64,000 bases of DNA from Candidatus Portnoybacteria bacterium (GCA_028688325.1 JAQTYI010000002.1:161284-225283); one strand, 5' to 3'. Counted from the stretch's first letter, positions 1,900 through 34,300 are shown. Program-made: numbers and translations. The notes: a model not told the origin generated them from the letters alone.

Positions 1900-2009
1900 A
1901 ATTTCTAATTATTCTAATTTTTAATTGACCTAATCAAATTCCAATGTCTAATTTCTAACCTCCGCCATTGGGCATTGATTAGAAATTGGGTTAATTAGGA
2001 ATTAGAAAT
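1900..2009. repeat. AT-rich imperfect palindromic word-repeat intergenic element (ttctaatt/aattagaa words; copy 1 of a family, see also 19737-19850)
   Basis: Sequence ttctaattattctaatttttaattgacctaat...ccaatgtctaat...attagaaattgggttaattaggaattagaaatt; closely homologous to 19737-19850 over about 110 bp; arms are inverted repeats of each other. Confidence 0.7.
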
Positions 2010-3191
2010 TTAAATACTCTTTATCACCTCCACCGTTTCTGCCACCAACTTTTTCCATTTAAATTTTTCCAGCGTCTTTTTGCCATTTTGGATGAATTTT
2101 TCCCGCAAGGCCTCGTCGTTCAAAAGCGTTTTGACGGCCGTTATCCAAGCTTTTTGGTCGTTATATGGCACGAGCAACCCGTTTTCCCCGCTTTGAACGA
2201 CTTCCGCGTTGCCGCCGATGGATGTAGCGATAACCGGCAAACCGACGGCCATGGCGTTGAGCACAGAATGGGGCAAGCCCTCATAGTTGGTATTTAAAAC
2301 GAATATCGTGGAGCGGCTGAAAATCTTATGGCTCTCCGGCTCGCTCACCCGGCCGCGAAATTTAACATTTTGCTCGATGCTCAATTTCCGCGCCTGCTCT
2401 TTCAAGGATTCCATTTCGGGCCCGTCGCCCAGCACCTCAAAAATGATATCGGGAATCTCTTTTTTCAGCTCAGCGACGACATCAAGCATCACCCCTACGC
2501 CTTTCCAAGGCATGAGGCGCCCCGCAAAGACCAAAGTTGGCGCCATCGGCCTGGTCTTTTGCGGCAGCTCGCCGAAAAAATCCACCGCGTTATAGATAAC
2601 GCGGATATTTTTTTCCGCCGCGCCGATCGCTTTGGCGATACCGGCGATGAAATTGCTTACCGCAATGACCCTGTCGGCGCCGGCCAGTATCTTCGCCCGC
2701 CGTTTTTTCATTTTCTCTATCCGGCGGCCGTATTTTTTATTCTGGAAATCGACAATATAATCTTTGATCCAACCGCACGCCGAGGCCGTCTCCCAAGCGC
2801 TGTCGCCGGCAAAGCGGATGATGTATTTTTTGCCGGTAAGTTTTTTTATCAGATAAGCGAAATAACCCACACTGTAAGTATCGGTGGCATAAATAATATC
2901 GCACCGGCCGGACAGGCGCCACATCCGCCAAAAATACGAGATCTTGGAGCAAGGCGATTGCCTGCTTATCCGCCAAACCATGCCTTCACGCTTTTCCTGT
3001 TCGCTCAAAGCCGTGTCCGAATAAGTGATGACTTTAATGTCCATACCGGCCTTTTTCAGGGCTCCGGGCAATTCCGTCAGCAAAGTGGCCGGGCCACCCA
3101 GGTCCGGAGGATAAATGCCAGTGGCGATCAAAATTTTTACCTGTCCGTTATGTTTGCCGGTCATAAACCATTTCTTTCGGCTTGAAAACAA
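2010..3191 (-). CDS. Glycosyltransferase family 4 (GT1/GT4 superfamily)
   Basis: 393 aa; typical GT4 architecture with C-terminal EX7E-like region (NTNYEGLPHSVLNAMAVGLPVIATSIGGNAEVV). True start may be the internal Met (MTGKHNGQVKILIATG...). Confidence 0.85.
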   Translation of the reverse strand: MFSSRKKWFMTGKHNGQVKILIATGIYPPDLGGPATLLTELPGALKKAGMDIKVITYSDTALSEQEKREGMVWRISRQSPCSKISYFWRMWRLSGRCDIIYATDTYSVGYFAYLIKKLTGKKYIIRFAGDSAWETASACGWIKDYIVDFQNKKYGRRIEKMKKRRAKILAGADRVIAVSNFIAGIAKAIGAAEKNIRVIYNAVDFFGELPQKTRPMAPTLVFAGRLMPWKGVGVMLDVVAELKKEIPDIIFEVLGDGPEMESLKEQARKLSIEQNVKFRGRVSEPESHKIFSRSTIFVLNTNYEGLPHSVLNAMAVGLPVIATSIGGNAEVVQSGENGLLVPYNDQKAWITAVKTLLNDEALREKFIQNGKKTLEKFKWKKLVAETVEVIKSI

Positions 3192-3582
3192 AAGCCCCGT
3201 AGGCGATGAAATTCCATATCGCTATCAGCGCGGCCGCGAAAACTTGCGCCAACAGATACCAAATGCCGAAAATATCCACCAAAAGGTACATCAGGCCCGT
3301 ATTGGCCGTTAAGCTTATCAAAGCGACCAAGAGATAAACGGCCATCTGTTTTTTCATCATTCCCCGGCTCTTGTCCTGAAAGGTCCATAATTTCTGCAGA
3401 AAAAAACTGACGAAAAAGGCCACGACAAAAGACGCGGCGGCCGAAAACAGATACCAGACCCCCAACCAGTCGGTAAAAACAAAAAGCAGCGCCAAGTTAA
3501 CGCCGGTGGCGGTGCCGCCGGCGATCAGATATCTTAATATTTTTTTTCTTTTGGCCAGTTGTTCCTTCAAAAAATCCATCAT
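3148..3582 (-). CDS. GtrA-family membrane protein (polysaccharide synthesis/translocation accessory)
   Basis: 144 aa, 4 predicted TM helices; N-terminal motif LRYLIAGGTATGVNLALLFVFTDWLG characteristic of GtrA-like proteins. Overlaps the downstream GT by 44 nt. Confidence 0.7.
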   Translation of the reverse strand: MMDFLKEQLAKRKKILRYLIAGGTATGVNLALLFVFTDWLGVWYLFSAAASFVVAFFVSFFLQKLWTFQDKSRGMMKKQMAVYLLVALISLTANTGLMYLLVDIFGIWYLLAQVFAAALIAIWNFIAYGAFVFKPKEMVYDRQT

Positions 3583-4739
3583 AAAGTTAACTGTGTGAAT
3601 GTTTCTTTCATCTGCGCGGCGATTTTATTCCAGCTGTATTGTTCCTGAACCAGCACTCTGCCGTTGATGATGAGCTTGGAATGCAAGGCGTGGTCGGCCA
3701 GCAATAGATTTATTTTTTCCGCTATGCTTTGGGAGTCCGAAACCTCGCAAAAAAGACCGGTTGGCGCTTGCCCCGAGTTTACCGAGGGATCGCGTAAAAA
3801 ATCCGGTATGCCGCCGACTTTTGTGCCGATTATCGGCACGCCCGCGGCCATGGCTTCCAAAAAAACATTGCCCAGCCCCTCGGCCAGCGACGGCCGGACA
3901 AATACATCGGCAATCGCCAAAAATTGCGGCACTTTATCGTGGGGCACATCGCCTAAAAATAATACCCTGTCGTTTAATCCCGAATTTTTAACCCGCGCCT
4001 TTAATTCCCGTTCCAGCGAACCGCTTCCCAAAATCAACAATTTAACCTCGGCCGGCAAATGCGACATCGCTTTGATCAGGTCGGCAATGCCATTTTTTTC
4101 CACCAGGCGCGAAACCGTGACAATAACTTTTTCTTGAATGGTTATACCCAGGCGCGATCTTAATTCCTGCTTGTTGCCGCCCGGCGTCTGAAATTTATTT
4201 ATATCCACGCCGTTCGGTACGATGGCTATTTGGCTTTTGGCGCCGTGCGCCAGCGCGAATTCCTTGAGATACCGGCTGATAGCCGTGATGAGATCGGCGC
4301 TAACGAACATTTTTTTATAATACGGCCCGAGCCATAAAGCGCGGGAAGCGATATGTTCGGGAGTGTCTCCTTCCTGCAAGGTTAAAACATACGGCACGCT
4401 CTTTAACTTATTTTTAAAAAATAGCGCGGCCAAACCGCCAAAAGACGCCATGATGGCCCAAGCGATATCGTACGGCTCCTGCCGGTGCAATTTTTCGGCC
4501 AGCGCCGCTCCGCGCCAAGGCAATAAAAATTTATCCAGTTTTCCCCAACCCCAACCCGCGCGATAGACATTAATTTTGCCCACTTTCTCCTGCTTGGGCA
4601 AATTCCTTTTTATCCGCGCGCAGATGAGGTCAAAAACAAAATCGCCGCCGAGCCGATCGGTAATTTCTTTAACCGCTATCTCAGCGCCCCCTATTAAAGG
4701 CAGATAAGCAGTGGAAAATATTAAAATTCTCTTTATCAT
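3579..4739 (-). CDS. Glycosyltransferase family 4
   Basis: 386 aa; GT4 Rossmann folds, C-terminal EAMAAGVPIIGTKVGGIPDFL motif; 4-nt overlap with the GtrA gene. Confidence 0.85.
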   Translation of the reverse strand: MIKRILIFSTAYLPLIGGAEIAVKEITDRLGGDFVFDLICARIKRNLPKQEKVGKINVYRAGWGWGKLDKFLLPWRGAALAEKLHRQEPYDIAWAIMASFGGLAALFFKNKLKSVPYVLTLQEGDTPEHIASRALWLGPYYKKMFVSADLITAISRYLKEFALAHGAKSQIAIVPNGVDINKFQTPGGNKQELRSRLGITIQEKVIVTVSRLVEKNGIADLIKAMSHLPAEVKLLILGSGSLERELKARVKNSGLNDRVLFLGDVPHDKVPQFLAIADVFVRPSLAEGLGNVFLEAMAAGVPIIGTKVGGIPDFLRDPSVNSGQAPTGLFCEVSDSQSIAEKINLLLADHALHSKLIINGRVLVQEQYSWNKIAAQMKETFTQLTL

Positions 4740-4913
4740 AAAGATAATTATAATTTTGATTCTCGCCCGCCGATTAGCAAAAGACCGGCAACAGAAAACC
4801 CAGCACTCTCTCGTTGCCTTTTATTTATCTGATTATCGCACAAATAGGACAAAATATCAAATAAAAAACAGGCCTGTAAAGAGCCCATTTTTTGCCATTT
4901 TTTAATAAAATTT

Positions 4914-6728
4914 TTACTCCAAACCTATCTCTTTTTTGTATTCCGCGAGCCACTCCAGCAAATTTATCGTCGGCTCCCAGCCCAAAAGCTCTTTGGCCAA
5001 GGAATTATCCGCTAATGTTTCTTTGGGCTCGATCCTGGGTGAAATATTTATTCTTGGTCCGCCGATGATTCCGGCTATTTGATTGACGCTATGATTGCTT
5101 CCCCGGCCGATATTTATCACTTCGCCCTTGCCGACATTGGAGCTGTTGGCCGCCAAGATATTGGCGCGCACCACATCGGCAACGCCGGTAAAATCGCGCT
5201 TCTGCTCGCCGTCGCCCACTATGGTCATCGGCTTTCCCGCCAAGCGCTGCCTGACAAATATTCCCAATACCAAAGTATAAGCCCCTTCCAAGGGCTGGCG
5301 CCGGCCGTAAACATTGAAATAACGCAAGGCGACCGTCGGCAGGCCGTAGAGCTCGGAAAATAGCCGGCAATATTGTTCGCCCATATGCTTTTGCATGGCG
5401 TAAGGGCTCATGGGATTGGTCGGCATATCTTCGCGCAAAGGCATTTTTTCCTGGTCGCCGTAAGCGGAAGAAGAAGCGGAGTAGATGACTTTTTTCACTT
5501 TTGCGTCACGGCTGGCGACCAAAACATTCAAAGTGCCGTTTAAATTGACATCATTGGAGCCGACCGGATCCTGGATCGACGGCTGCACGCGGGGCCTCGC
5601 CGCCAAATGAAAAACATAATCCACGCCTTCAAACAGCGGCTTGATGGCATTTAGATTCCTGATGTCCTCTTGATAAAGCTTGGCTCCGGGATTCAGATAT
5701 TCGCGCTTGCCGGCTGAAAGATCATCTATCACAATAACCTCATTGCCCCGACTGACCAGTTCGTCAACCAGATGAGAGCCGATAAAACCCGCGCCGCCCG
5801 TCACCAGGCATTTGGCCGATCTCTTTTTTTGAGACGGAACGGGAAACAGCGAGCGATTCAAAGCGTCGTTAAATACCTCCTCTCCATAAACTCCGGACAG
5901 CAAGTCCAGGTCTTTTTTGCTCGAAATCAGCAAATCAATATTCTTATTTTTAACGCTTTCCAAAACATCTTTTCCCAGAGAGTCGCCGACCATCTCTTCG
6001 TAGAATTTATGAAAAGCCGCAAAATCCTTGATAAAACAGTGGCCGCCCGCCCCCCGGCCGCTTTTGTGGATCGGGTCCAGATGCGTCCGGCCGATGCGCC
6101 AATCAGCCGCCATCGCGTCCCTGACCACTTCCCAGCGAGCGCCGGATTTGGCGACAAGATCAAAAAACATATTTATAAAAACCACTTTAAAATAGAACCA
6201 GTTATTGCCGCCATATTTTATTAGCTCCGCTTCGCGTGAAGAACACACCAAAGAATACGGGGCATAAGGCAAAACTTTCATCGCTTCTTGAGCTGCCCGG
6301 CGAAAATCGGAATTATCTATCGGCAGACCGATAATGTTGCGTTGGGGATTGGCGGAGTCATGGGCAGCTGTGGCTTCAGTTAAAAATTCGGGCGAATGCA
6401 GAACAAAAATACCGGGATTTTCCTCCTGGATCTTTTCGGTAGCACCGGGCAGAACGGTCGACTTGATGACCGCGATCTTTCCCCGCCCGATCTTCTTTAT
6501 CACTTGCCGCAAAATAGCATCGTCAAAACCCCGAGGAGTGGTGGGCGTGGGCACGGCGATAAAAACAATATCGCACTCGCTTATGCCGTGACCATTCCGG
6601 ACATAAGGCTCTTCCAGAGCGTAACGGACAATATCAAAACCGCGCCGTTCGAAATCGTCGGCGTAGCTTTTACCTATCCATCCCTGGCCGATAAACCCTA
6701 TTTTTTTGTTCAAATTTTGCCCGTTCAT
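4914..6728 (-). CDS. Fusion protein: truncated UDP-glucose/GDP-mannose dehydrogenase-like N-terminal + central domain fused to NAD-dependent sugar epimerase/dehydratase (SDR)
   Basis: 604 aa. Residues 1-~290 carry GxGxxG (IGFIGQGWIGKS) and the catalytic-Cys motif GGHCFIKD of nucleotide-sugar dehydrogenases but lack the C-terminal UDP-binding domain. Residues ~300-604 are an extended SDR ([17 protein letters not shown]; YAMQK catalytic YxxxK) as in UDP-glucose/glucuronate 4-epimerases. Confidence 0.8.
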   Translation of the reverse strand: MNGQNLNKKIGFIGQGWIGKSYADDFERRGFDIVRYALEEPYVRNGHGISECDIVFIAVPTPTTPRGFDDAILRQVIKKIGRGKIAVIKSTVLPGATEKIQEENPGIFVLHSPEFLTEATAAHDSANPQRNIIGLPIDNSDFRRAAQEAMKVLPYAPYSLVCSSREAELIKYGGNNWFYFKVVFINMFFDLVAKSGARWEVVRDAMAADWRIGRTHLDPIHKSGRGAGGHCFIKDFAAFHKFYEEMVGDSLGKDVLESVKNKNIDLLISSKKDLDLLSGVYGEEVFNDALNRSLFPVPSQKKRSAKCLVTGGAGFIGSHLVDELVSRGNEVIVIDDLSAGKREYLNPGAKLYQEDIRNLNAIKPLFEGVDYVFHLAARPRVQPSIQDPVGSNDVNLNGTLNVLVASRDAKVKKVIYSASSSAYGDQEKMPLREDMPTNPMSPYAMQKHMGEQYCRLFSELYGLPTVALRYFNVYGRRQPLEGAYTLVLGIFVRQRLAGKPMTIVGDGEQKRDFTGVADVVRANILAANSSNVGKGEVINIGRGSNHSVNQIAGIIGGPRINISPRIEPKETLADNSLAKELLGWEPTINLLEWLAEYKKEIGLE

Positions 6729-6895
6729 CGCCGTAGAAATTATTATGCCGCAAAAAAGTTATTACTGATTTATTATCCTATATATAAATTGTCGAAAAGT
6801 CAATTAGGAAGACAAAAAAACCGCTGTTCTGCGCGGCTTACTATTTATCTTGCAAGAACTGGCTTTTTGACGCTTTTTACCCTAAAATATCGATA

Positions 6896-7100
6896 TGCGT
6901 AAAATCCTCTATATCATCACTCAATCGGAGCCGGGACGGCGCGTCGCCCCGCTAAAGCGGGACTCCCTAAAACCCCTCGGTTTTAGTATTTCCGCCAAGG
7001 GGGCGCTTCGCTCCCCCGCCACCCCCTCTGCGCGTCGCCAAAACAACTGATATCGCTTCACTCATATGAAAAAAATCATCTATATCATCACTCAATCGGA
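6896..7100 (+). other. Duplicated gene start (imperfect ~32-bp direct repeat) separated by a GC-rich ~130-bp insert; first copy gives a 25-codon truncated ORF
   Basis: atgcgtaaaatcctctatatcatcactcaatcggagc (6896-6932) vs atgaaaaaaatcatctatatcatcactcaatcggagc (7066-7102): MRKILYIITQSE / MKKIIYIITQSE. Intervening 6934-7065 is GC-rich (cgggacggcgcgtcgccccgctaaagcggg...gcgcgtcgccaaaac) unlike its surroundings. Confidence 0.6.
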
Positions 7101-8229
7101 GCTCGGCGGCGCGCAGGAAAATGTGCTTGATTTGGCCGCGGGACTGAGGGAAAAATACGATGTTTTGGTGGCGGCCGGGCCGGACGGCGGCGGCAAGCTT
7201 TTTAAGCAACTGGCCGACAATAAGATCAGCTTCCAGGAACTCAAGTGGCTCCGCCGCAGCGCGGCCAATCCATTTGCCGACATCGCGGGGCTGGTTGAAA
7301 TTTTCTCACTCTTGCTCAAGGAGCGCCCCGATGTTATCCATCTGCACAGCTCCAAAGCGGGCTTTTTGGGCTCGCTGGCCGGCAAGCTCGCCGGCGTCAA
7401 AGTTGTTTATACTGTCCATGGCGCGGTTTTTGAAGCGTCCTTTTCCGGGCTCGCCAGAAAATTTTTCCTGTATCTGGAAAAATTCAGCGCCCCGTTTAAA
7501 GATAAAATCATCTGCGTTTCTGCCAACGATAAAAAGCTTTGGCTAAAATACAATGCCGCTCCGGAAACCAAGTTGGCGATAGTTTACAACGGCATCGACC
7601 TTAAAACGGCTTTTTTACCCAAAGCAGAGGCGAAAGAATATCTGGCCAGCCAAAGCGCCAACTTTTTTGAAGCACTGCGCGGCTCAAACGAAAAATTAAG
7701 AATCGTCGGCACGGTTGCCAATTTCTTTCCGGAGAAGGGGTTGCCTTATCTTATCGAAGCAGCCGATGTCCTTATCAATAAAAAACAAATAAAAAATATT
7801 ATTTTTGCGATAATGGGCGAAGGGCCCCAGCGACTTCTGCTTAAAGAGATGCTGGAAGAGCGCGGATTAGCTGATAAGTTCATACTGCTTGGAACGGTTG
7901 CCAATCCTTTTAAATATTTAAAGGCCTTCGATGTTTTCACGCAACCGTCAACAAAAGAAGGATTGCCCTACGCCATTTTATGGGCCATGGCCGCGGAATT
8001 GCCGATTGTCGCCTCGCATGTCGGCGGCATTCCCGAAATGGTGAAAAACGGCGATAACGGCTTCTTGATTTTCCCGCGCGATACCGATACATTGGCCGAA
8101 AAGATCCTTGAGTTGCTGAGCAATCACGCGCTAAGCCAAAAATTCACCTTCAACTCCCGGCAAAAGATCAGGGAATTTTCCCTGGATAAAATGATAGCGG
8201 CCACGGAAAAGATATATCTGGAAAAATAA
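7066..8229 (+). CDS. Glycosyltransferase family 4
   Basis: 387 aa; GT4 motifs (EGLPYAILWAMAAELPIVASHVGGIPEMV). One of only three plus-strand genes in the window. Confidence 0.85.
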   Translation: MKKIIYIITQSELGGAQENVLDLAAGLREKYDVLVAAGPDGGGKLFKQLADNKISFQELKWLRRSAANPFADIAGLVEIFSLLLKERPDVIHLHSSKAGFLGSLAGKLAGVKVVYTVHGAVFEASFSGLARKFFLYLEKFSAPFKDKIICVSANDKKLWLKYNAAPETKLAIVYNGIDLKTAFLPKAEAKEYLASQSANFFEALRGSNEKLRIVGTVANFFPEKGLPYLIEAADVLINKKQIKNIIFAIMGEGPQRLLLKEMLEERGLADKFILLGTVANPFKYLKAFDVFTQPSTKEGLPYAILWAMAAELPIVASHVGGIPEMVKNGDNGFLIFPRDTDTLAEKILELLSNHALSQKFTFNSRQKIREFSLDKMIAATEKIYLEK

Positions 8230-8235
8230 CTGAAA

Positions 8236-8268
8236 CAAAAAACCACCTTACTCGAAGGTGTTTTTTTG
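8236..8268 (+). terminator. Rho-independent terminator after the plus-strand GT gene
   Basis: caccttactcgaaggtg hairpin followed by ttttttt, 7 nt after the stop codon. Confidence 0.65.
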
Positions 8269-8344
8269 TTTAATTCCCGAACCTCAATTTCAAATTTCCA
8301 ATAAAATCCCAAATCTCAATTATCAATTATCAATTATCAAAAAA
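8265..8344. repeat. AT-rich word-repeat intergenic element (caattatcaat words)
   Basis: ccaataaaatcccaaatctcaattatcaattatcaattatcaa; shares words with 10958-11118, 13189-13297 and 20380-20573. Confidence 0.55.
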
Positions 8345-8716
8345 TTATTTCGACTTATTGATAATCGAGGAAAAGATAAAAACAAGCTCTTGGCGTTCTT
8401 TCCATAGGGTCCGGCAATCTTGCTGATTTAATGGACAAGCTTTAGCTATCATTCTTAACCAATGCATTGTTTCTTTGGCCTCTTTCCGAGAAATCGCAAG
8501 CTTATGTTTGAAATCTTTTTTAGATTCGCCGGCATCCGCTTCCGTATAGTTTGCGCCGATACTCGTCCCCGATCTGACTATTTGGCCGATCAAAGGCCTC
8601 GTTACTTCGTCTTTTTTTATTAATCGGGCAAATTCAATAATATTTTCACCCAATAAAGCGGTTCTTTCCAAAAGGTCATATTTTTTGTTATTGGAAATTG
8701 GGATTTTATTTGACAT
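8345..8716 (-). CDS. Four-helix-bundle protein (23S rRNA intervening-sequence protein family)
   Basis: 123 aa; family motifs SGTSIGANYTEADAGESKKDFKHKLAISRKEAKETMHWLRM. Confidence 0.8.
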   Translation of the reverse strand: MSNKIPISNNKKYDLLERTALLGENIIEFARLIKKDEVTRPLIGQIVRSGTSIGANYTEADAGESKKDFKHKLAISRKEAKETMHWLRMIAKACPLNQQDCRTLWKERQELVFIFSSIINKSK

Positions 8717-8738
8717 TAAGATTTAGTCATTGGTCATT

Positions 8739-11057
8739 TCAGAGCCCCAGCCCCTTGATAAACTGCTCGCTTTGACTCTGATAGCTCGGATTAATTTGGA
8801 TCGCCTGCAGGGCCAGTTCCTTGGCTTTCTGCTTATCGCCCATTTGGGCGTAAACCGCCGCCAAACTGGCGTAAGGAGCCGCGTCGCCGGATGCCAATTT
8901 TATCCATTCCTGGTGAAGCGCGATGATGCGCGGCCAATCGCTGGTGCGCTTATAAGCACTGATCAGTTGCTTAATCTCCGTCAGCCCATATGCCCGGCCC
9001 AGCTCCTTGGCTTTTTTAATTTCCGCCTCGCCCAAATCTTTTTGACCGACGCCAATGGCAATCACGCCGTAATTCCAATGCGATAAAGACACTCTGTCGT
9101 TCAACTCCACCGCACGCTTGAATTGCGCCAAAGCATCGGCTGGCCGGCCCTGGTACATCTTTATTTGGCCGGTATAAAAATAAAGCTCTTGCCGAGTGGG
9201 ACTTAATTCCAAAGCTTTTTGCAACAGCGCATCGGCTTGCGCTAAATAATCGTTATCCGACGCGGCCGACGACAAATAAACGCTAGTCAGCATCATCATA
9301 AACCGCACATTCAGCGGTTCCTGCCCCAGGGCCCCGTTCATGCCGTCGATCGCCAATTTTGTAAACTTCTTCTTGACATCCGCCGGAATGTTGCTGTTCT
9401 GCGATAATTGCAAAGCCGCATCCTGGACGCGCATAGCGATTTCCGGCAAACCGTATGTGCCGATATCAAAAGACGCCTTAAATTGCGCCAGCGATTCATC
9501 CGCCTTGCCTTGCTGTAAAGTTTGCAAAGCGCCTATGCCTTCCATACTGGCCAGGCCCGGCTTTATGTTCACGAAATAAAGCGCGAACGCCAGAATCAGA
9601 ACCGTCGTAACTTTAAAAAAGAAATTCGGTCTTACCGGCTGAATATTAAGATTTTCCGCAGAAGGTTTCACGCTTAAAAAAACAATGAAAGCCATTATGG
9701 AATAAAACATCAGAAGCGTCACCTGCGTGTCGAACACAAAAACATTCTGAATGCCATAGGTCAACAAAACCACCGAAAAAATGGCCGCGGTAAAATAAGT
9801 TATTTTCCCTTGCCGCCAAGCCGACCATAAATACCAGAAAGCTAAAAAGATCACCGCCAAATAAGCCGCCATTCCCAGCAGGCCCGTGTTGACCAAAATA
9901 TCCAAATAAGCGTTATGCGAACGATCAAACCACGACTCCACCGGATAAAGATCGGGGTTATAAAATTGGTTAAAAACGACATAATAATTTTCCGGCCCCC
10001 AGCCAAAAAGCGGTTTTCCCAAAAAGCCCCGCCAACTCATTTGCCACGCCATTAAGCGCGTTTGGGCGGTTGTTTCGGCCAAGTTGATATGGGTAATCCG
10101 GCTCAAAGTCGGGCTATTTTGAACAAAAGCGGAATCACGGCTTAGAAAAATAAAACCGCCGACCAAGAACAGACCGATAAAAACCGCCAGAAGGTATCTT
10201 TTTAATCTTTCCGGCCGCGCAAAAGGCAGGATCGCCAGGTCTTTTTGGCGAGCAAAGATAAAAAATATAAACAGGCCCAGAACCCCGGCTCCAAAAGCCA
10301 CCAACGCGCCTCTGGTCTGGGTTTCATACATAACAAACAGATTTACCACTATCGCCAAACCGTAGAAAAGACGCCAGCCGGTTGATCTTTTTTCCAGCAT
10401 CAGCCAGAGGGCGAATAAAGCGTTAAAAAGCATATAGCCGGCCAAAAAAGAAGCGTTGCCGATGGTACCATCCAAACGCGCGCCGCCGCTGGAAGTAAAA
10501 ATGCCAGCCAGCTGTCCCAAGCCGTAAAACGCTTCTATAACGCTGGCTAAAATCGAAAAATCGAAAAATTTGTGCCAGTCCTTCTGGGTTTTGAAAATAT
10601 TAGCCGCCACGAATAAAAATCCCAGATAATGCAAGAGCGATATTACGCCGGCCATGCGCTCGTAGTTTGACCAGAAGCTGTGATATGTGTTCACTCCGAA
10701 AATCGAGCTCAATATCATCACCACAAAATATGCCGTCAGTGCTTTAAAAAGCCAGGATGAGCGGGGTCGGTAGTCGGGATTTTTTAATGCCAAAAACAGA
10801 TATAACGCGAGAATGATTTCCACAATTATTTGGAAAGACGCTTGTTTGGGGAAAATATACGGGAAAATAAAACTTCCGCCGATAAGCAAGGGCATAAAAA
10901 GACAAGCGAAAAGACCGGCTTTGATGGTTGAAACGAGCCAATTTGACTGATAGCTTTTAACCGATTTTGACATAATTTTATAAATTTCTAATTGATTACA
11001 CAAAATCCCAATGCCCAAAACCAAAACCCAAATAAAATCACGAATCTCAAATCTCAA
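8739..11057 (-). CDS. O-antigen ligase family (Wzy_C/PglL/WaaL-like) polytopic membrane protein with C-terminal TPR-repeat domain
   Basis: 772 aa; about 12 TM helices; Wzy_C signatures TQTRGALVAFGAG, FGWGPENY, DRSHNAYLDILVNTGLLG; C-terminal ~270 aa TPR-like repeats. Confidence 0.75.
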   Translation of the reverse strand: MRFEIRDFIWVLVLGIGILCNQLEIYKIMSKSVKSYQSNWLVSTIKAGLFACLFMPLLIGGSFIFPYIFPKQASFQIIVEIILALYLFLALKNPDYRPRSSWLFKALTAYFVVMILSSIFGVNTYHSFWSNYERMAGVISLLHYLGFLFVAANIFKTQKDWHKFFDFSILASVIEAFYGLGQLAGIFTSSGGARLDGTIGNASFLAGYMLFNALFALWLMLEKRSTGWRLFYGLAIVVNLFVMYETQTRGALVAFGAGVLGLFIFFIFARQKDLAILPFARPERLKRYLLAVFIGLFLVGGFIFLSRDSAFVQNSPTLSRITHINLAETTAQTRLMAWQMSWRGFLGKPLFGWGPENYYVVFNQFYNPDLYPVESWFDRSHNAYLDILVNTGLLGMAAYLAVIFLAFWYLWSAWRQGKITYFTAAIFSVVLLTYGIQNVFVFDTQVTLLMFYSIMAFIVFLSVKPSAENLNIQPVRPNFFFKVTTVLILAFALYFVNIKPGLASMEGIGALQTLQQGKADESLAQFKASFDIGTYGLPEIAMRVQDAALQLSQNSNIPADVKKKFTKLAIDGMNGALGQEPLNVRFMMMLTSVYLSSAASDNDYLAQADALLQKALELSPTRQELYFYTGQIKMYQGRPADALAQFKRAVELNDRVSLSHWNYGVIAIGVGQKDLGEAEIKKAKELGRAYGLTEIKQLISAYKRTSDWPRIIALHQEWIKLASGDAAPYASLAAVYAQMGDKQKAKELALQAIQINPSYQSQSEQFIKGLGL

Positions 11058-11118
11058 ATTATTAAAGATTTGGGGTTGGGATTTTATTGGAAATTTGTCA
11101 TTGGGATTTGCTTGAAAA
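10958..11118. repeat. AT-rich palindromic intergenic element (aaatcccaa / ttgggattt words)
   Basis: aaaatcccaatgcccaaaaccaaaacccaaataaaatc ... gatttggggttgggattttattggaaatttgtcattgggattt: inverted arms. Confidence 0.55.
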
Positions 11119-13188
11119 TTATTTTATCTGTTCCCAATACCGCCTAACTTCCTCACCCATTTTACCATCAATCTTTTGCGCTTGTGAAATGATTTCCTGC
11201 GCTTTGGCCTGTTGCCCCGATAAAGAATAGCCGGCCGCCAAGACCAGATAGGCGTCTTTTTTATTCGGCCTCAGCTCTTTAGCTCGGTTGCCCAAGTCAA
11301 TGGCCATGCTCATCCGGCCACGGTCTTGGGTCGAAAAATAAAGATCCAACCAGGCCAGCGCAAGATAATTCCCGGCTTGGTCGGGCGAGCGCTCAATCCC
11401 TTTTGCCAGCGCCGCGGCGGCGATATTATAAAAGTCCTCATTTTGCGCCAAAGCCGGGTTTTGATTGATTTTATCAATATAGTCCAAAGAGGCCTGATAT
11501 GCAATCTCGGCGGAACCGAATGCGCCCAGATCAAGCGCATCTTTCAGCAGAGGCGCCTCAAGGGCGGCATTTTCCGCGGGCAATGACAATATCTGGTTGG
11601 CCCGGTAGGCGGCCAGGAGAGGTTTGAAATTAAAAGAGTAAACGGCCGTTAGCAAATAGCCGACAACCAATAGCAAAATAATTTTTTTAAAAACACTCCA
11701 CTCGCCGCCGCGAGAAATCTCCCGCCGGCAAGGAAATATCACGCAGTCGGACTGCGTGATATTGACGATAAATGCCAGAACGAAAAACAGCATTAGATAA
11801 GAAACAAAGGAATCAAAAATAAAAAAATTCTGGACCAGATACGCGGCCAGGAGAGACAAAAAAATGACAGAAAATAAAAACGCCTTTTTTTTATTTTCTG
11901 TCATCCCGGACTCGATCCGGGATCCAGGAGCATGGATTCCGGCTTTCGCCGGAATGACAACCCTAATTAATTCATAGCTTACTATAATAAAAATACCCAA
12001 ATACGCCAACAATCCCAGCCAACCCGTTGCCACGCCGTAATCAAAAATAAAATTGTGTGCGCGGTCAGTTGCGTAGGCCTCAAATTCCGCCAGGCGCGGC
12101 GATAGATATCGGCCCGTGGCCGCCTCGAAATTTTCCGGACCAAAACCCAAAATCGGCTTGGTTTGCCAGGCCCGCCAAGCGCCTTGCCAAAGAAGCAAGC
12201 GGCTTTGGGTCGTGGCATCGCTCAGGGAAAAATGGGTTAAGCGATACAGAGTTGAATTATTTTTTACCAGGTCGTTGCCGCGGAAAAGAAACAAAGAAAT
12301 AATCAAAACAAAAATAATGGCCAAAAACACCCAGCTTGTTTTTTTTGTCATCCCGAATTTATTTTGGGATTTCCTGTCACTGGATCCTGAAACAAGTTTA
12401 GGACGACAAACTTCTTGATTAAATAAAAAAATAATTATCCCCGCCGCCAGCCCCAGCCACGCGCCGCGCGTGCCGGACAATAATAAGCTTATGGTTAATA
12501 GCAAAGAACTAATAGCAAAAAACCATTTTCGCCACCCGGCCGACGCAAAAAATAAATAACCGGCTAAAAAAAGATTAAGCAAGGCATAGCCGGCAAAAAA
12601 GCCCGCGTTGCCGATAAGACCAAAGACCCGGCCATTTGCCGGCAAAAGAATACCCCAGCCCCCCAGGCGCTGAATAAGGGCTGTGAGGGCGATAAATACG
12701 GCCACTGCCACTGAAATTCCCGCTAATTTAACCCAATCTTGCTGCCCCTTAAAAACGGCGGATAACATTAAAAACCAAGCAACAAAATGCGCTAAACCCC
12801 AAACTCCGCCTCCCCGCTCCAAACTACCCCAAAAACTATTGTAAAAATCTAAGCCAAAAATGGCAGAGAGAAGGTTGATGGCGAAAAAAACCAATACCGC
12901 GCCCGCAACGCTGGTAAACCAACTTGTGTAGCGGGCAGGCCTGGATTCCGGCTCTCCGCTCACGCTTCGGCCGAAATGACAAAATGTTTTGGGATATTTT
13001 AGCGCCAGATAAAGATAGAGCGCCGCGGCGATCTCCACCAAAATCCTGAACGCGAAAACTTTTGGCGCGGTATAAGGAAAAATAAAAGAAGCGCTGGCAA
13101 AAAGCGGCGCGGCCAGGCAAGCAGCCAGTAAAATTTTTATCAACCCGAAAATTTTATTATCTGTCTTAGAAAAATCTGAAATTTTCAA
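11119..13188 (-). CDS. O-antigen ligase family (Wzy_C/PglL-like) membrane protein with C-terminal TPR domain; paralog of 8739-11057 carrying three in-frame palindromic-element insertions
   Basis: 689 aa; SGTRGAWLGLAAG, GFGPENF, DRAHNFIFDYGVATGWLG motifs; TPR-like tail. Three extra peptide segments relative to the paralog coincide with palindromic-element copies at 11899-11960, 12346-12392 and 12938-12983. Confidence 0.75.
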   Translation of the reverse strand: MKISDFSKTDNKIFGLIKILLAACLAAPLFASASFIFPYTAPKVFAFRILVEIAAALYLYLALKYPKTFCHFGRSVSGEPESRPARYTSWFTSVAGAVLVFFAINLLSAIFGLDFYNSFWGSLERGGGVWGLAHFVAWFLMLSAVFKGQQDWVKLAGISVAVAVFIALTALIQRLGGWGILLPANGRVFGLIGNAGFFAGYALLNLFLAGYLFFASAGWRKWFFAISSLLLTISLLLSGTRGAWLGLAAGIIIFLFNQEVCRPKLVSGSSDRKSQNKFGMTKKTSWVFLAIIFVLIISLFLFRGNDLVKNNSTLYRLTHFSLSDATTQSRLLLWQGAWRAWQTKPILGFGPENFEAATGRYLSPRLAEFEAYATDRAHNFIFDYGVATGWLGLLAYLGIFIIVSYELIRVVIPAKAGIHAPGSRIESGMTENKKKAFLFSVIFLSLLAAYLVQNFFIFDSFVSYLMLFFVLAFIVNITQSDCVIFPCRREISRGGEWSVFKKIILLLVVGYLLTAVYSFNFKPLLAAYRANQILSLPAENAALEAPLLKDALDLGAFGSAEIAYQASLDYIDKINQNPALAQNEDFYNIAAAALAKGIERSPDQAGNYLALAWLDLYFSTQDRGRMSMAIDLGNRAKELRPNKKDAYLVLAAGYSLSGQQAKAQEIISQAQKIDGKMGEEVRRYWEQIK
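11899..11960. mobile_element. Miniature palindromic element (TGTCATCCCGG...CCGGAATGACAA family) inserted in-frame in a CDS
   Basis: tgtcatcccggactcgatccgggatccaggagcatggattccggctttcgccggaatgacaa; translated in the host ORF as VIPAKAGIHAPGSRIESGMTE; absent from the paralog. Confidence 0.7.
12346..12392. mobile_element. Degenerate copy of the TGTCATCCCG element, in-frame in the CDS
   Basis: ttgtcatcccgaatttattttgggatttcctgtcactggatcctga; host translation ...SGSSDRKSQNKFGMTKKT... Confidence 0.5.
12938..12983. mobile_element. Partial copy (right half) of the palindromic element, in-frame in the CDS
   Basis: ctggattccggctctccgctcacgcttcggccgaaatgacaaaa; host translation CHFGRSVSGEPESRP. Confidence 0.5.
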
Positions 13189-13297
13189 TTTTCAATGATC
13201 AATTATCAATGAATTTTCAATGATTAAATTTTCAATTGATAATTTGAAAATTGGTGATTGATTGAAAATTGTAAATTGATAATTGAAAATTACTTTA
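13189..13297. repeat. AT-rich ~110-bp imperfect palindrome built of ttttcaat / caattatcaat words, centred on caattg
   Basis: aattttcaatgatcaattatcaatgaattttcaatgattaaattttcaattgataatttgaaaattggtgattgattgaaaattgtaaattgataattgaaaatt; left and right arms are reverse complements with a few mismatches. Confidence 0.7.
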
Positions 13298-13990: not shown

Positions 13991-14009
13991 AATAAAAATT
14001 ATGCCATAC

Positions 14010-14072
14010 CGGATTAAATCCGGCATCCAGGCCCTAAATTCTGGATCCCGCGGCAAGCCCGGGATGACAAAA
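14010..14072. mobile_element. Palindromic element copy (TGTCATCCCGGGCTTGCC... family), reverse orientation
   Basis: gccggattaaatccggcatccaggccctaaattctggatcccgcggcaagcccgggatgacaaaaa. Confidence 0.6.
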
Positions 14073-14209
14073 AATGAATAATTACTTAACGGTATTCTAT
14101 CAAATTTTTCCCAAAAAGAAAACACCCAAAGCCCGAAGGCAAAGGGTGTTCTCTTTTTTCCCGCGGCTAAGTCACAAGCAAAGCCGAAGGAATTTTCTCA
14201 TTTAAGAGA

Positions 14210-17779: not shown

Positions 17780-18590
17780 TTTTAATTTCGTATTTGATCC
17801 GCCAATTAAATTTCTTTAATTGACAAGATCTATTTTCAATTCGTTCGGTTATTTTTTTCCTTGCGAGAATTCCGATGGCTTGCGCCTTGGAATTGCACCC
17901 CCGCGCTTTTTCTCGTATCACCGAATAAGCGATATGATTTTTCTGCTCCGCGTTAATATCCGCGTAGCAGATCCGCGTTTTAAGGCGCGGCATAAAGCGA
18001 GGTGTCCTCGAGGTTTAATCTGCCACCCCCCTTTTTATTCATTCCGCTACGTCCCGTAAACAAGACATTCGCGCAATGGGGGCCAAGTAATAAATAACCT
18101 CTGAATTGATTTTTTAATGATTTTTTGTTTTTTTTGTTTCAAAAAGCCACTCGGAAACGAAACTCAAAACATCTGAGGAATTTCAACCTCAAATGCTTGA
18201 CGACCTGCAGTTCCCTTCCGTGCCCCAAACCGGGCCTAATCCCGTTAGAAATTATTGAATAATCTTCTTAGCTCTTTAGCTTGCGCTTATTTATACGGAT
18301 AAGCCAGGTGCCGCCAAGCGATTACGCGATAATTTCTAACGGGACAAATCCCTTGTTTAAGACAAAAAATGGTCTTTTTTTCTATATAACGATTATATAA
18401 AATAACTACCCTTATAGTCAACCCCATTGGAAATTCATCCAAATATAGCTTTTATTCCGAATATAAGCCGGCGGCGGCTTCGCTTTTTCCGCTTATAATG
18501 CCGCAATTTTGGCTGAATTTCCAATGGAGCAGATCAGAACGACCTGCGGATAAACAATTCTTTTTTTTCTCTAAATAAGCCGATTTTTGT
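17780..18590 (-). promoter_or_regulatory. Long non-coding leader/promoter region upstream of the large surface-protein gene, with internal inverted and direct repeats
   Basis: 810 bp without ORFs >60 aa; a 17-bp inverted repeat cccgttagaaattattg / cgataatttctaacggg (18240-18350) encloses ~70 nt; three copies of TCCGCGT in 17925-17975; candidate structured 5' UTR. Confidence 0.4.
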
Positions 18591-20379: not shown

Positions 20380-20573
20380 GTTTCCAAAATTTGCTGCAAA
20401 TTAGCTTAAATAAAGTTTTCAATTTTCAATGCTCAATTTTTCACCCTTCGGGTGACCACCCGTAGGGTGGCAATCAATTATCAAATTTTCATTGAACATT
20501 GGTAATTGAAAATTCATTGATAATTGGAAATTGATAATTTTTAATCTATATAGTTATGCAAAAATAGTGGTTG
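20380..20573. repeat. AT-rich word-repeat element containing two short GC hairpins
   Basis: ttttcaattttcaatgctcaatttttcacccttcgggtgaccacccgtagggtggcaatcaattatcaaattttcattgaacattggtaattgaaaattcattgataattggaaattgataattt; hairpins cacccttcgggtg and ccacccgtagggtgg; may also act as the GalU terminator. Confidence 0.6.
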
Positions 20574-26740: not shown

Positions 26741-26829
26741 AATACCCTACGAATTTACCAATTTTTACAAATATTACTAATAGGAACTAATATTCGTAAA
26801 CTTAGTAAAAAATTCGTAATTTAGTAGGG
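26741..26829 (-). promoter_or_regulatory. clpB upstream region with repeated ATTCGTAA-type motifs (candidate stress-regulator operator)
   Basis: ccctacgaatttacc ... ctaatattcgtaaacttagtaaaaaattcgtaatttagtaggg; three TTCGTAA cores, two as a direct repeat attcgtaa(a/t)(c/t)ttagta spaced ~20 bp; outer inverted repeat ccctacgaattt / aaattcgta...taggg. Confidence 0.35.
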
Positions 26830-29466: not shown

Positions 29467-29477
29467 ATTCCCTTTAT

Positions 29478-29546
29478 AAAAATCACCCCGCAAAATGCCC
29501 GCTTCGCTTTCGCGAAGGCGAGGCGAGCGGGGTGATTTTTATAAAG
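29478..29546. terminator. Long bidirectional hairpin between convergent genes
   Basis: tttataaaaatcaccccgc ... gcggggtgatttttataaa: 19-bp perfect stem flanking a GC-rich loop (gcttcgctttcgcgaaggcgagg); A/T runs on both sides. Confidence 0.65.
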
Positions 29547-29557
29547 CGGAAGATTGC

Positions 29558-32588: not shown

Positions 32589-33311
32589 TTAAATAAACTT
32601 GCTTATCAACAAAATAAATCCCACGCCAAGCAGCATCATAAAACCGTTTTTCCAATTATGCTCTTTGTGGGTAAGGGGCACCAGGTCCGAAGCGCTGATA
32701 TAAATAAAAGCTCCGGCCGCGCCCGCCAGCAGCAGGCCCAGAGTTTGGCCGGCCAGCTGAGCTGTAAAAAAATACGCCAGCATAGCGCCAAGCGGCGTGG
32801 CCAACGCCACAAGCCAAGAAAAAAATAACGCCTTGCTTTGGGAAAAACGCCCGCCCAGCAATAGAACATAAAGGCAGCTGCCTTCGGAAATTTTATGGAA
32901 GACGATCGCCAAAGAAGCCAAAAGGCCGACATTAAAACCGGCCTGGAACGCGATGCCGATTGTTAGCCCGTCAATTAACGAATGGAAGCCGATGCCAAAA
33001 AGTCCCATGTGTCCAAGCGAGTGTGTTTCGCAACCCTCTTCGTAGCAGGCATGAATTATTATCACCTGTTCTATCAGATAGAAAAAAATTATCGCGCCCA
33101 GCGCCCCGTACGGCCAAAGCGCCGTTGTTTGCGCGGCTTCGGGCAGCAAATGCAAAAAAGCGTTGGCCATTAAAACTCCCACCGCAAAACTCACAAATAA
33201 AACCAAGCTTTTTTTAGCCCGAGCGCCAAAAAAATAAACCAGATAAACGCCGCCCATAGCCGCCAAACCGGCGACGAAACTGTAGATTAAAATACTTAAA
33301 AAAATATTCAT
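32589..33311 (-). CDS. ZIP-family metal cation transporter (ZupT-like)
   Basis: 240 aa, 8 TM; His-rich ZIP motifs (HSLIDGLTIGIAFQAG; HKISEG; HNWKNG). Confidence 0.8.
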   Translation of the reverse strand: MNIFLSILIYSFVAGLAAMGGVYLVYFFGARAKKSLVLFVSFAVGVLMANAFLHLLPEAAQTTALWPYGALGAIIFFYLIEQVIIIHACYEEGCETHSLGHMGLFGIGFHSLIDGLTIGIAFQAGFNVGLLASLAIVFHKISEGSCLYVLLLGGRFSQSKALFFSWLVALATPLGAMLAYFFTAQLAGQTLGLLLAGAAGAFIYISASDLVPLTHKEHNWKNGFMMLLGVGFILLISKFI

Positions 33312-34171
33312 AATCCTTGTTTTTCGACCAATATCGCCGCGCCGAGCGCCCCGCCGAATTGACCGAGTTCACTCAATAAAATTTGCGTTTTTTTGGCAGC
33401 CGGCGAAACAACGAATTTGTCAACGCCTTCTTCAATGCCCGGCCAAAGCATTCCGGCGGTCGCGCTTATTCCCCCATTTATGATTATGGCTTCGGGATCA
33501 AAAATATTGATGATATTGGCGATGCCTACCCCCAAATTTTTGCCCAGATGAGTAAAAGCCGCCTCCGCTTTTTTGTCGCCGCCGCGCCGCCTTTGTTCCG
33601 CTTCGGCCGAACCGACGCCCAAAATATTTTTAATGAATTTATTGGCGCCCAATTCCTCCCAGCCGGTATATTTTTCCATATCCATTATCATATGCCCCGC
33701 TTCGCCGGCCGCGCCGTGTGAACCGGCCACAATCTGCCCGTTTATCATAAAAGCTCCGCCGATACCCGAACCCAGCGTCAGATAAAAAACATTCTTCATA
33801 TTTTTAGCCAAACCGGCTTCTTTCTCCGCCAGTAAAAAACAATGCGCATCGTGCTCGATTTTTAGCCGATGACCGCGGAACCTTCCTTCCAGCAATTCCT
33901 TGACGGGCTGGCCGTTCAAATATTTGATATTGGGGCTGTTCAGCATTATTTTACGCTCCAAGTCCATAGCCCCGGCCAAACCAAAACCCACGCCGCCGAT
34001 TTCCTCGTGGCCGAGTCCGGCAATGAGCTCTGTATGCATTTTTATCAGCGCCAGCAATAAATTTTCCAGATCGCCCGGCAAGTCGCGAACGCCGCTTTTT
34101 ATTATCTGGCGATCCCTGGCCAGCACGGCTTTGATGCTGGACGCACCGATGTCGAAACCGATGTAATACAT
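33308..34171 (-). CDS. ROK-family sugar kinase (glucokinase-like)
   Basis: 287 aa; MYYIGFDIGASSIKAV (ATPase N-motif), GSGIGGAFMINGQIVAG..GEAGHM typical of ROK kinases. Confidence 0.8.
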   Translation of the reverse strand: MYYIGFDIGASSIKAVLARDRQIIKSGVRDLPGDLENLLLALIKMHTELIAGLGHEEIGGVGFGLAGAMDLERKIMLNSPNIKYLNGQPVKELLEGRFRGHRLKIEHDAHCFLLAEKEAGLAKNMKNVFYLTLGSGIGGAFMINGQIVAGSHGAAGEAGHMIMDMEKYTGWEELGANKFIKNILGVGSAEAEQRRRGGDKKAEAAFTHLGKNLGVGIANIINIFDPEAIIINGGISATAGMLWPGIEEGVDKFVVSPAAKKTQILLSELGQFGGALGAAILVEKQGL

Positions 34172-34300
34172 AAAAATGTCTAAATCCTAATGTCTAATGA
34201 CAAATGGAAATCTTAATGCCAAACGCAAAATTTAGAGGCATTGGTCATTTCATTAAACATTAGTCATTGGAGCTTTGGCATTAATAATAAAATTATTCGA
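34172..34300. repeat. AT-rich palindromic word-repeat element (aatgtctaatg / cattagtcatt words)
   Basis: atgtctaaatcctaatgtctaatgacaaatggaaatcttaatgccaaa ... tttagaggcattggtcatttcattaaacattagtcattggagctttggcattaa; arms inverted; shares the ccaatgtctaat word with the elements at 1900 and 19737. Confidence 0.6.

Follow-up and report, generated by a model that had tools for sequence, protein, structure and literature searches.

The elements described here are best compared with intervening sequences (IVSs) of rRNA genes. In Coxiella, the IVS is a selfish element of 428 nt that RNase III excises; it has a terminal stem of 28 bp, an S23p open reading frame (ORF) and, before the ATG, 2-3 strain-variable tandem heptamers (GACAGAT), and an older idea holds that the ORF might serve mobility (PMC4990558). 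ORFs of the 23S_rRNA_IVP family (PF05635) also occur in 16S and 23S rRNA insertions of bacteria of the candidate phyla radiation (CPR) (PMC11270868) and inside cas operons (PMC3936711), and the Avd protein found in diversity-generating retroelements is a homolog of the family (PMC10053308). Cyanobacterial short tandemly repeated repetitive (STRR) sequences are 7-bp repeats that form hairpins between genes, with a function that is unexplained (PMC2670836), Xanthomonas carries 70-75 convergent pairs of GGGAATC arrays per genome (PMC4692102), and TAACTGA repeats are common to Beggiatoaceae, cyanobacteria and Bacteroidetes, with no known mechanism of transfer (PMC4679880). Here we analyzed a 64-kb stretch of a Candidatus Portnoybacteria genome (GCA_028688325.1, JAQTYI010000002.1:161284-225283), referred to in its entirety as the window. 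Seven of its intergenic gaps hold AT-rich inverted arrays of degenerate heptamers, which probably belong to one class of mobile palindromic element, and one palindrome encloses a gene for a four-helix-bundle (4HB) protein of PF05635.

Several families of transcribed palindromic repeats resembling MITEs (miniature inverted-repeat transposable elements) are known, namely Correia/CREE in Neisseria, ERIC/IRU in enterobacteria, RUP in pneumococcus and RPE in Rickettsia. Like the window elements, they are imperfect palindromes (100-150 bp) at gene junctions and are present or absent at orthologous sites; they are co-transcribed, and Correia hairpins are cut by RNase III, which alters mRNA stability. 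They differ in having defined termini (a TA duplication in Correia) and in being confined to one genus or family each. To our knowledge, they are not built of heptamers, and none of them carries a 4HB gene.

Heptamer palindromes at gene junctions

An earlier reading of the window, made from the sequence alone (the sequence-only reading), had listed seven AT-rich imperfect palindromes at operon junctions. All seven places hold AT-rich arrays with a period of 7. The listed ranges contain the elements, but they are gaps between maximal ORFs, and the elements are smaller. Within 19641-19848, the element occupies 19737-19848 and the rest consists of promoter/leader sequence that relatives have conserved, whereas the elements of the ranges 20380-20573 and 10958-11118 lie at about 20405-20548 and 10975-11118, respectively. 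The features are listed below; the word differs between families A to D.

1900-2009, no strand assigned: element 1900, ORF-less heptamer palindrome of family A (TTCTAAT words)
8272-8344, minus strand: 3'-side arm of the 4HB unit, formerly listed as element 8265; heptamer arrays TTGATAA x3 and GGGATTTTATTGGAAATTTGAAATTGAGG
8345-8716, minus strand: 4HB protein gene (123 aa; PF05635 23S_rRNA_IVP, TIGR02436) in the palindrome loop
8686-8745, minus strand: 5'-side arm of the 4HB unit, spanning the ATG and the first ~10 codons (ATGTCAAATAAAATCCCAATTTCCAATAAC = MSNKIPISNN)
10975-11118, no strand assigned: element 10958, ORF-less, family C (AAATCCCAA / GGGATTTTATTGGAAATTTG words), mini-ORF ATGACAAATTTCCAATAA retained
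13175-13297, no strand assigned: element 13175/13189, ORF-less, family B (TTTTCAA / CAATTAT words)
19737-19848, no strand assigned: element 19737, ORF-less, family A, adjoining the stop codon (19849-19851) of an extracytoplasmic function (ECF) sigma-factor gene
20405-20548, no strand assigned: element 20405, ORF-less, family B, with two nested GC mini-hairpins (20442-20454, 20456-20470) in one arm
26741-26829, no strand assigned: an eighth AT-rich palindrome (ACGAATT / TACTAAT words, period ~9)
34172-34300, no strand assigned: element 34172, ORF-less, family D (AATGTCTAATG / TGACAAA words)

The window thus contains one complete gene-bearing unit (8272-8745) and six ORF-less elements, or seven counting 26741. 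The elements are heptamer arrays of 80-210 bp with a GC content of 17-32%. Self-identity at a lag of 7 was 0.45-0.61 in 7/7 elements compared with 0.31 expected (pooled z 12.1), while 11 other intergenic regions had a lag-7 identity of 0.29 and no heptamer periodicity. Tandem Repeats Finder (TRF) reported period-7 arrays in the elements as well. The shared vocabulary of 8-11-bp words noticed in the sequence-only reading is therefore real and is better described as degenerate tandem heptamers. Its words were enriched beyond expectation: with at most one mismatch, the ten-mer AATTTCTAAT occurred 33 times (15.0 +/- 3.9 expected) and the ten-mer AATTTTCAAT 44 times (26.1 +/- 4.6 expected), counts that 0/100 shuffles reached. 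The matches cluster in the elements and change strand at the center of each one; the arms are inverted arrays.

Dyad symmetry was assessed by folding each element as RNA on the gene-sense strand and comparing it with 200 dinucleotide shuffles. Four elements folded strongly: 1900 (z -4.5, 0/200 shuffles folding as well), 19730-19848 (z -5.05, 0/200), 20400-20545 (z -5.7, 0/200) and 13175 (z -3.0, 1/200). The dyad was weak in 34172 (z -1.95, 3/200) and 10975-11118 (z -1.75, 14/200), and element 8265 alone had none (z -0.8, 45/200). The arms that had been described as reverse complements in all seven are thus clear in four, weak in two and absent from 8265 taken by itself.

Element 1900 spans the entire gap between the stop codon of a glycosyltransferase gene (2010-2012) and the ATG of a radical-SAM gene (1897-1899). 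Its identity was 83-88% to element 19737, in agreement with the ~85% estimated before, and 87% to the copy at L017 (L numbers denote loci outside the window). At the base of its stem, the upstream stop codon and the downstream ATG meet with neither spacer nor Shine-Dalgarno sequence, so that the translational-coupling idea raised for STRR hairpins is worth testing on this element. Element 13175-13297 begins 3 nt past the stop codon of gene 13298-14125, has arms of 56 nt that are 77% complementary, and is 74-76% identical to elements at L023 and L028. The inverted repeat of element 10975-11118 comprises 11009-11039 and 11080-11110, and element 34172 showed 65-70% similarity to elements at L009 and L022. 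The two GC hairpins reported before in one copy were located in element 20405-20548, at a gap in its alignment with the related element 13189; a search with the pattern CACCCNNNNGGGTG, whose loop length was set wrong, gave 0 matches in the window and unrelated matches only in other loci. All elements had been placed between co-directional minus-strand genes, which does not hold for 8265, as it sits between convergent genes. The earlier list had also overlooked the palindrome 26741-26829 (fold z -4.85, palindrome score 100), for which no relatives were found, together with the heptamer period, the enclosed 4HB gene and the parallel with rRNA IVSs.

A 4HB gene between complementary heptamer arms

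What had been listed as element 8265 is a single arm; the palindrome to which it belongs is larger and has the 4HB gene in its loop. The gene product matched PF05635 with 58.3 bits (cut-off 33.8), TIGR02436 with E = 2e-21 and the structure PDB 2RLD with E = 2e-12. The arm segment 8293-8320 pairs with 8690-8717 (28 nt, 82% complementary) about 370 bp away, across the gene; the arm complementarity of the unit had a z of 5.1. When the 5' and 3' flanks of 50 window genes were compared, the 4HB gene ranked second (z 4.7, median 0.6). In the predicted folds of the 474-nt unit, both the minimum free energy and the centroid structure close a long-range stem that includes the AUG. The first ten codons of the gene are the arm words themselves.

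The words of these arms recur around 4HB genes of other genomes. The 8272-8344 arm shared 47% of its 8-mers with other genomes' 4HB arms compared with a shuffle mean of 20.2/66 (about 31%), and element 10975-11118 shared 45% (61 observed, 28.6 +/- 6.0 in shuffles); for element 10958 and the two arms around the gene, the shared fraction ranged over 45-57%, far above shuffles. Element 10958 looks like a 4HB unit that has lost its ORF and whose two arms have been joined, with ATGACAAATTTCCAATAA and GGGATTTTATTGGAAATTTG retained.

Heptamer arms around 4HB genes of other bacteria

The window protein had 2121 homologs at E <= 1e-5. Among the 120 homologs listed, identity ranged from 59 to 99%, the source names included Moranbacteria, Uhrbacteria, Nitrospirae and Ignavibacteria, and nearly all N-termini read M[STP]N[KQ][IVA][QSP]N.N.KK, which is the translated heptamer arm. 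Flanking heptamer arrays were present at 23/23 4HB genes examined; the two arrays were complementary in most, and the word differed from case to case. These genes comprised 9 metagenomic or metagenome-assembled genome (MAG) units, 10 plasmid-borne genes and 4 that were judged by eye, from CPR, Nitrospirae, cyanobacteria, Bacteroidota, Chloroflexota and Spirochaetota.

Arm complementarity was significant in 9/9 metagenomic or MAG units (z 2.7-14), and in all eight units other than that of the window the ATG-spanning region pairs with the region after the stop codon (z 2.7-14). Downstream, several of these eight independent units carry ATGTCAAATAAAAT as its reverse complement. On a Nitrospirae contig, a second and divergent 4HB gene has quite different heptamers, AGCAYAG arrays followed by their complement, and the 4HB genes at L005 and L047 each have words of their own.

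A tblastn search of a plasmid collection with the 4HB protein gave matches dominated by Nostocales. Tandem heptamers flanked 10/10 plasmid 4HB genes, most of which had the complementary array on the opposite side, and z values reached 24 (Nostoc flagelliforme, N. punctiforme, Anabaena cylindrica, Planktothrix, Pseudanabaena, Gloeocapsa, Euhalothece, Bernardetia, Chlorohelix and Treponema). The N. punctiforme gene, with AATTCGC x4 upstream and GCGAATT x4 downstream, gave the z of 24.

Some plasmid units lie in or beside defense loci (L121, L123, L126, L127 and L128, from Anabaena, Chlorohelix, Planktothrix, Pseudanabaena and Gloeocapsa). Their settings are between cas2 and cas1, beside cas1, between a helicase and a DNA methylase gene, and between DUF1156 and a Swt1 HEPN gene, in agreement with an earlier description of cas loci that contain 23S_rRNA_IVP genes (PMC3936711).

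Copies of family A in different genomes

A 22-base pattern of family A, taken from elements 1900 and 19737, was scanned over contigs representing one genome per species and matched 21 stretches. The match at L012 had no surrounding similarity and was rejected as chance; the other 20/21 are the same kind of element, with conserved outer arms (AAATTTCTAATT..TCTAATTTCTAATTGACCTAAT ... GATTAGAAATTAGGTTAATTAGGAATTAGAAATT) and variable interiors built of complementary heptamer-like words. The ends AAATTTCTAATT... and ...AATTAGAAATTT are conserved across about 20 copies, and conservation was 0.79-0.91 in the terminal inverted repeats compared with a median of 0.52 in the interior. The host MAGs, with phylum labels taken as deposited, are Patescibacteria, Saccharibacteria, Berkelbacteria, Jorgensenbacteria, Omnitrophota and Bdellovibrionales, with a GC content of 37-56%.

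Element 19737 was 92% identical over 115 nt to the copy at L009, in a different MAG, compared with 83% to its own sister copy in the window, and two copies lying 2 kb apart at L007 were 96% identical. The loci with family A copies cannot otherwise be aligned, apart from other small repeats. The copies also conserve an asymmetry of G.T pairs, as the strand with the G.T pairs folds better in 19/22 copies. The family A pattern was absent from 2.9 million viral contigs, and element 19737 had no match in plasmid and phage DNA, a search in which matches may be masked by the low-complexity filter of BLAST.

Turnover at orthologous junctions

When metagenomes were scanned for the sigma factor, 16 syntenic loci (67-82% identity) were recovered. 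The window is syntenic with Patescibacteria (CPR) MAG contigs; at L013, amino acid identity to the window was 68% for the sigma factor and 76% for GalU. The gap after the sigma-factor stop codon was occupied as follows.

Window and L013: family A, with very different interiors
L023, L028 and L037: TTTTCAA-type (family B)
L022: TGACAAA-type, the sigma ORF running ten codons into the element
L031: CAATNAT-type
L027, L029, L032, L033 and L034: no element (5/11 relatives)

Upstream of the sigma gene, the window has a family B element with GC hairpins and four relatives have other heptamer palindromes, while L013, L027 and L031-L036 have an empty gap of 30-55 bp. AT-rich palindromes of at least 70 bp occurred at 1.55 per 10 kb in close relatives and at 0.06-0.10 in distant loci, one group of which is more AT-rich. 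On the basis of the variation at the sigma junction and these rates, the elements are dispensable, enriched in the lineage and repeatedly gained, lost or replaced. Most family A copies start at the upstream stop codon or no more than a few bases from it, which is partly explained by the TAA and TAG that family A words carry in at least two frames.

The gene-bearing unit may move as well, judging from syntenic relatives in which an 89%-identical unit occupies a different junction. At L102-L105, a 4HB unit whose protein is 89% identical to that of the window lies between orthologs of the glycosyltransferase gene 2010-3191 and the radical-SAM gene 448-1899 (67% identity for a glycosyltransferase and 81% for the radical-SAM enzyme). 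This is the junction of the ORF-less element 1900 in the window, where the 4HB unit lies 6 kb away at a different junction. Immediately upstream of a sigma homolog (47-48% identity), L045-L047 carry a 4HB unit; before its own sigma gene, at a junction that may or may not be orthologous, the window has an ORF-less family B element.

Two further observations concern these gaps. The stretch 19641-19736 and the orthologous gaps (L013, L022-L037) contain the motif TGTAAT(A/C)..N~17..CGTCATCTTTAnnnATG upstream of a DUF5667 gene, conserved in all relatives. The motif resembles an extended -10 promoter with a leader lacking a Shine-Dalgarno sequence and lies outside the palindrome. At L028 and L037, the gap after the sigma gene holds family B plus nested GC-rich palindromes (CCTCCCCTCCTTAGTCAAGGAGGGG..., GGAATTACGAAAC...GTTTCGTAATTC) that are absent from L023, so that different repeat types stack at one junction.

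Comparison with described systems

The window 4HB unit has the structure of an ORF-type IVS at a location other than that of the 23S rRNA IVSs. Like the ORF-containing 23S rRNA IVSs of Leptospira, Coxiella and Xanthomonas (PMC4990558), the elements have terminal inverted repeats forming a long stem, with a PF05635 ORF in the loop in unit 8272-8745 only; tandem heptamers directly before the ATG, short ORF-less versions and a suspected mobile or selfish nature are also shared. Unlike IVSs, they lie between protein-coding genes and not in helix 25 or 45 of 23S rRNA, and their arms are long heptamer arrays, of which the 5' arm is partly coding. Excision by RNase III has been shown for IVSs and would apply to the window elements by analogy.

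The 7-bp units, intergenic position and hairpin capacity are those of cyanobacterial STRR (Mazel 1990, as cited in PMC4692102; PMC2670836), and the plasmid 4HB genes of Nostoc, Anabaena and Planktothrix are all flanked by such 7-bp arrays. The window differs in its CPR host, STRR having been described for heterocystous cyanobacteria, and in its AT-rich words (AATTTCT, TTTTCAA, AAATCCC), which are not the three Calothrix heptanucleotides, and STRR have not been described as arms of a gene-bearing unit. Xanthomonas GGGAATC repeats are likewise intergenic heptamer arrays in inverted pairs with stem-loop potential whose length varies between close relatives; they differ in being G-rich with quadruplex potential, in having one word per genome and no gene link, and in that no sharing across phyla was reported (PMC4692102). 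REPIN/RAYT systems similarly consist of non-autonomous repeats that form hairpins and are associated with one gene family, with no target duplication, whereas REPs are short GC-rich palindromes and the gene is an HUH tyrosine transposase (PMC3116915); no RAYT/HUH gene was seen in the window.

Of the MITE features, family A has terminal inverted repeats, no direct repeat flanks its roughly 20 copies as a target-site duplication would, and the 64-kb window contains no cognate insertion sequence (IS). In defining properties they match neither MITEs (no duplication) nor REPINs, attC sites, intrinsic terminators or any Rfam family. A full-text literature search found no paper tying 4HB genes to heptamer arrays in general, beyond the remark on the Coxiella IVS, and no description of MITE-like repeats in CPR bacteria, an absence that is no proof of novelty.

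Genomic setting and other structured repeats

The window has a GC content of about 46%, and nearly all of its genes are on the minus strand. They encode envelope polysaccharide enzymes and housekeeping proteins (ClpB, NifS/NifU, LepA, FtsE/FtsX, MurJ and a release factor with PCRF and RF-1 domains). Three tRNAs were the sole matches to Rfam 15 at the gathering threshold; no element matched at that threshold, and nothing did at E <= 1 over positions 1-36000. No rRNA and no gene for a transposase, integrase, reverse transcriptase or RNase III (rnc) was found in the 64-kb window. An exact-protein look-up of the ECF sigma factor returned no record.

Other structured repeats were also observed. The stretch 17780-18590 (minus strand) is gene-free over 810 nt, folds with a z of -9.4, and is syntenic, with blocks nearly invariant, in L022, L023, L027 and L029. 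It contains a near-consensus promoter (TTGACT-18-TATAAT at 18421..18392), no conserved ORF and no Rfam match even at E <= 1, and is a candidate noncoding RNA or ~600-nt structured leader of a 1189-aa gene. A hairpin of ~105 nt (TCCCGTTAGAAATTAT...ATAATTTCTAACGGGA) occurs at 18240-18344 and 18424-18527, at L023 (6838-6937) and at L029 (1703-1803). It is inserted in the conserved noncoding region in the window and L023 and is cleanly absent there from L022, L027 and L029 (empty site AAGGGAT|TTAGGCCC); by this sequence comparison, it appears to be a second kind of mobile palindrome.

Hairpin repeats of the form GTCATCCTGAACGAAGTGAGGGATC ... GATTCTTCGCTTCGCTCAGAATGAC lie at 46686-46804 and 51148-51212. 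Family A elements sit inside the loop of this repeat type in L002, L005, L009 and L021, and the palindromes are thus nested. A duplicated structured element of ~150 bp flanks ftsE on both sides (43100-43250 and 44050-44200, fold z -7 and -8). A short repeat (CCCCGAGCGATTTATCCCG...) occurs at 48657-48705, at 50790-50833 (reverse) and at L005 3031-3079, with 91-92% identity to the other MAG and one copy inside the murJ ORF. Gene 52287-52850, which encodes a PaaX central Cas2-like domain, lies between two sets of GAGCGATAGCATAAATACCC-type repeats (52230-52290 and 52851-52935) and had the highest 5'/3' flank complementarity of the 50 window genes (z 6.3).

Discussion

The data suggest, with a probability that we put at about 0.6, that the seven gaps represent one architectural class of mobile, IVS-like or STRR-like palindromic insertion elements with gene-bearing and ORF-less forms. 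This reading brings together the heptamer architecture, its generality around the 4HB genes examined, its sharing between genomes and its turnover at junctions. The "distinct class of palindromic repeat" that the sequence-only reading had offered among several options is supported by copies that are multiple, shared between genomes and gained, lost or replaced at orthologous sites. Families A, B and D are linked to the 4HB unit by their shared architecture, by the same junctions and by the variability of words among 4HB units, and not by sequence.

The elements would be, or recently would have been, mobile and horizontally transferred DNA inserting into the few bases between a stop codon and the promoter of the next gene. 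Their A/T-rich arms appear to carry stops in at least two frames, so that ORFs reading into them would usually end within a few codons, and this would help explain why they are tolerated at gene junctions. By analogy with IVSs, they may be co-transcribed with the upstream gene and fold into AU-rich RNA duplexes of 35-50 bp, which RNase III would probably cleave, cutting or destabilizing the transcript at the junction. Where the arms enclose the gene, the stem would also hide or expose the 4HB start codon. Slippage, together with correction of one arm against the other, may quickly change the number and the word of the heptamers. As a factor encoded by the element, the 4HB protein is the sole candidate. 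With regard to the nucleoid-protein binding arrays that the sequence-only reading had raised, the link to a small Avd-like protein makes a dedicated binding protein conceivable.

Several observations weigh against this reading. The dyad is weak in 34172 and 10975, and 8-mer sharing with 4HB-unit arms was significant in family C only (8265 + 8686, 10958), not in families A, B and D. About 20 family A copies showed no target-site duplication and no consistent flanking motif. As the window lacks a transposase, reverse transcriptase, integrase and RNase III gene, no mechanism of movement can be named. The orientation of family A relative to flanking genes is mixed (7 sense, 10 antisense), so that neither an mRNA-sense nor a replication-strand rule holds; this fits a palindrome or a selfish insert and does not favor an RNA role specific to one strand. 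The proposed RNA folding and cleavage by RNase III draw purely on the analogy with IVS stems, and the phylum labels of the family A hosts are those of the deposited MAGs.

Arrays could also have arisen in place, slippage expanding the heptamers and selection for a hairpin (a terminator or mRNA stabilizer) keeping the arms complementary; nothing would then move, and similar words would have converged through mutation or composition. Among the long simple-sequence repeats of bacteria, heptamers are the commonest, and slippage was proposed as their source (Mrazek 2007, as cited in PMC4679880 and PMC4692102), their copy number differs between Coxiella strains (PMC4990558), and family A interiors diverge (median identity 0.52) with most still self-complementary. 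We nevertheless find this quite unlikely, given copies at unrelated loci that are 83-96% identical over 105-213 nt, 92% identity between different MAGs whose other DNA is unalignable, an exact 22-mer with conserved flanks at 20 loci, including hosts of 55-56% GC, a conserved G.T asymmetry inherited by the copies, and different families at the same junction in close relatives. Classical MITEs, that is, IS deletion derivatives mobilized in trans by a DDE (or HUH/RAYT-type) transposase elsewhere in the genome, would account for terminal inverted repeats that are better conserved (0.79-0.91) than the interior (0.52), for multi-copy, AT-rich, intergenic elements of 100-210 bp, and for nested insertions such as the GC mini-hairpins in 20405-20548 and family A in the loops of GTCATCCTGA-type hairpins (L002, L005, L009, L021). 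Such an origin is improbable, since no target-site duplication was seen at about 20 junctions, no transposase lies in the window, the entire arm and not the tip alone is a heptamer array, and the 4HB gene is the only ORF ever found between such arms.

Transcription punctuation, by which the host would select a terminator or a terminator-plus-promoter module at an operon junction, agrees with the position directly after stop codons, the symmetry of A-tract, stem and T-tract (AAATTT...AAATTT) and the -35/-10-like words (TTGAAA, TTGACC, GATAAT; 44 promoter-like sites in the region compared with 27.8 +/- 5.2 expected). The elements are dispensable, however: at the sigma gene, 5/11 syntenic relatives lack one on the downstream side and most lack one on the upstream side. 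A terminator-like scan of positions 1-20000 picked up no element, because the A-U-rich stems lack G-C pairs, whereas canonical terminators with a GC stem and T-run occur elsewhere in the window (e.g., 8233-8271 and 29468-29551). The conserved promoter-like motif TGTAAT..CGTCATCTTTA lies outside element 19737, and element 1900 leaves no space for a promoter or ribosome-binding site. The "promoter plus terminator modules" of the sequence-only reading thus find no support as a necessary function, and we give punctuation little credence as a general explanation. Integron-like attC sites, imperfect palindromes that follow each cassette gene and are recombined by an integron integrase, recall the elements in that these too are imperfect palindromes (80-140 bp) directly after stop codons of co-directional genes. 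This idea was rejected and is almost certainly wrong, as the element sequences show no RYYYAAC / GTTRRRY core sites, the window has no integrase, and the flanking genes are housekeeping and envelope genes whose order is conserved in relatives with and without elements.

A wider form of the mobile-element reading is tentative, and we consider it rather doubtful. The heptamer arrays of many phyla, STRR, the Xanthomonas GGGAATC pairs, the ORF-bearing IVS stems and the CPR palindromes might be arms or relics of one widespread selfish class whose sole gene is an Avd-like 4HB gene; the protein would recognize or propagate arrays without a transposase, and ORF-less copies would be non-autonomous derivatives that cross phyla. 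One possibility, by analogy with Avd in diversity-generating retroelements, is that a reverse transcriptase acting in trans is recruited by the 4HB protein.

Should all 4HB genes prove to lie between complementary arrays, two widespread puzzles would merge, that of heptamer repeats (STRR since 1990, Xanthomonas GGGAATC, Beggiatoa TAACTGA) and that of the S23p/4HB family (rRNA IVS ORFs and Avd relatives), and the question would become whether the 4HB protein binds, protects or spreads heptamer arrays. The arms may also explain 4HB genes inside cas and restriction operons. For annotation, the arms lengthen ORF calls and add spurious N- or C-terminal residues, as in MSNKIPISNN and the sigma ORF of L022. 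CPR genomes are tiny and gene-dense, and they would harbor at their operon junctions a horizontally shared family of noncoding DNA that may cut or insulate transcripts.

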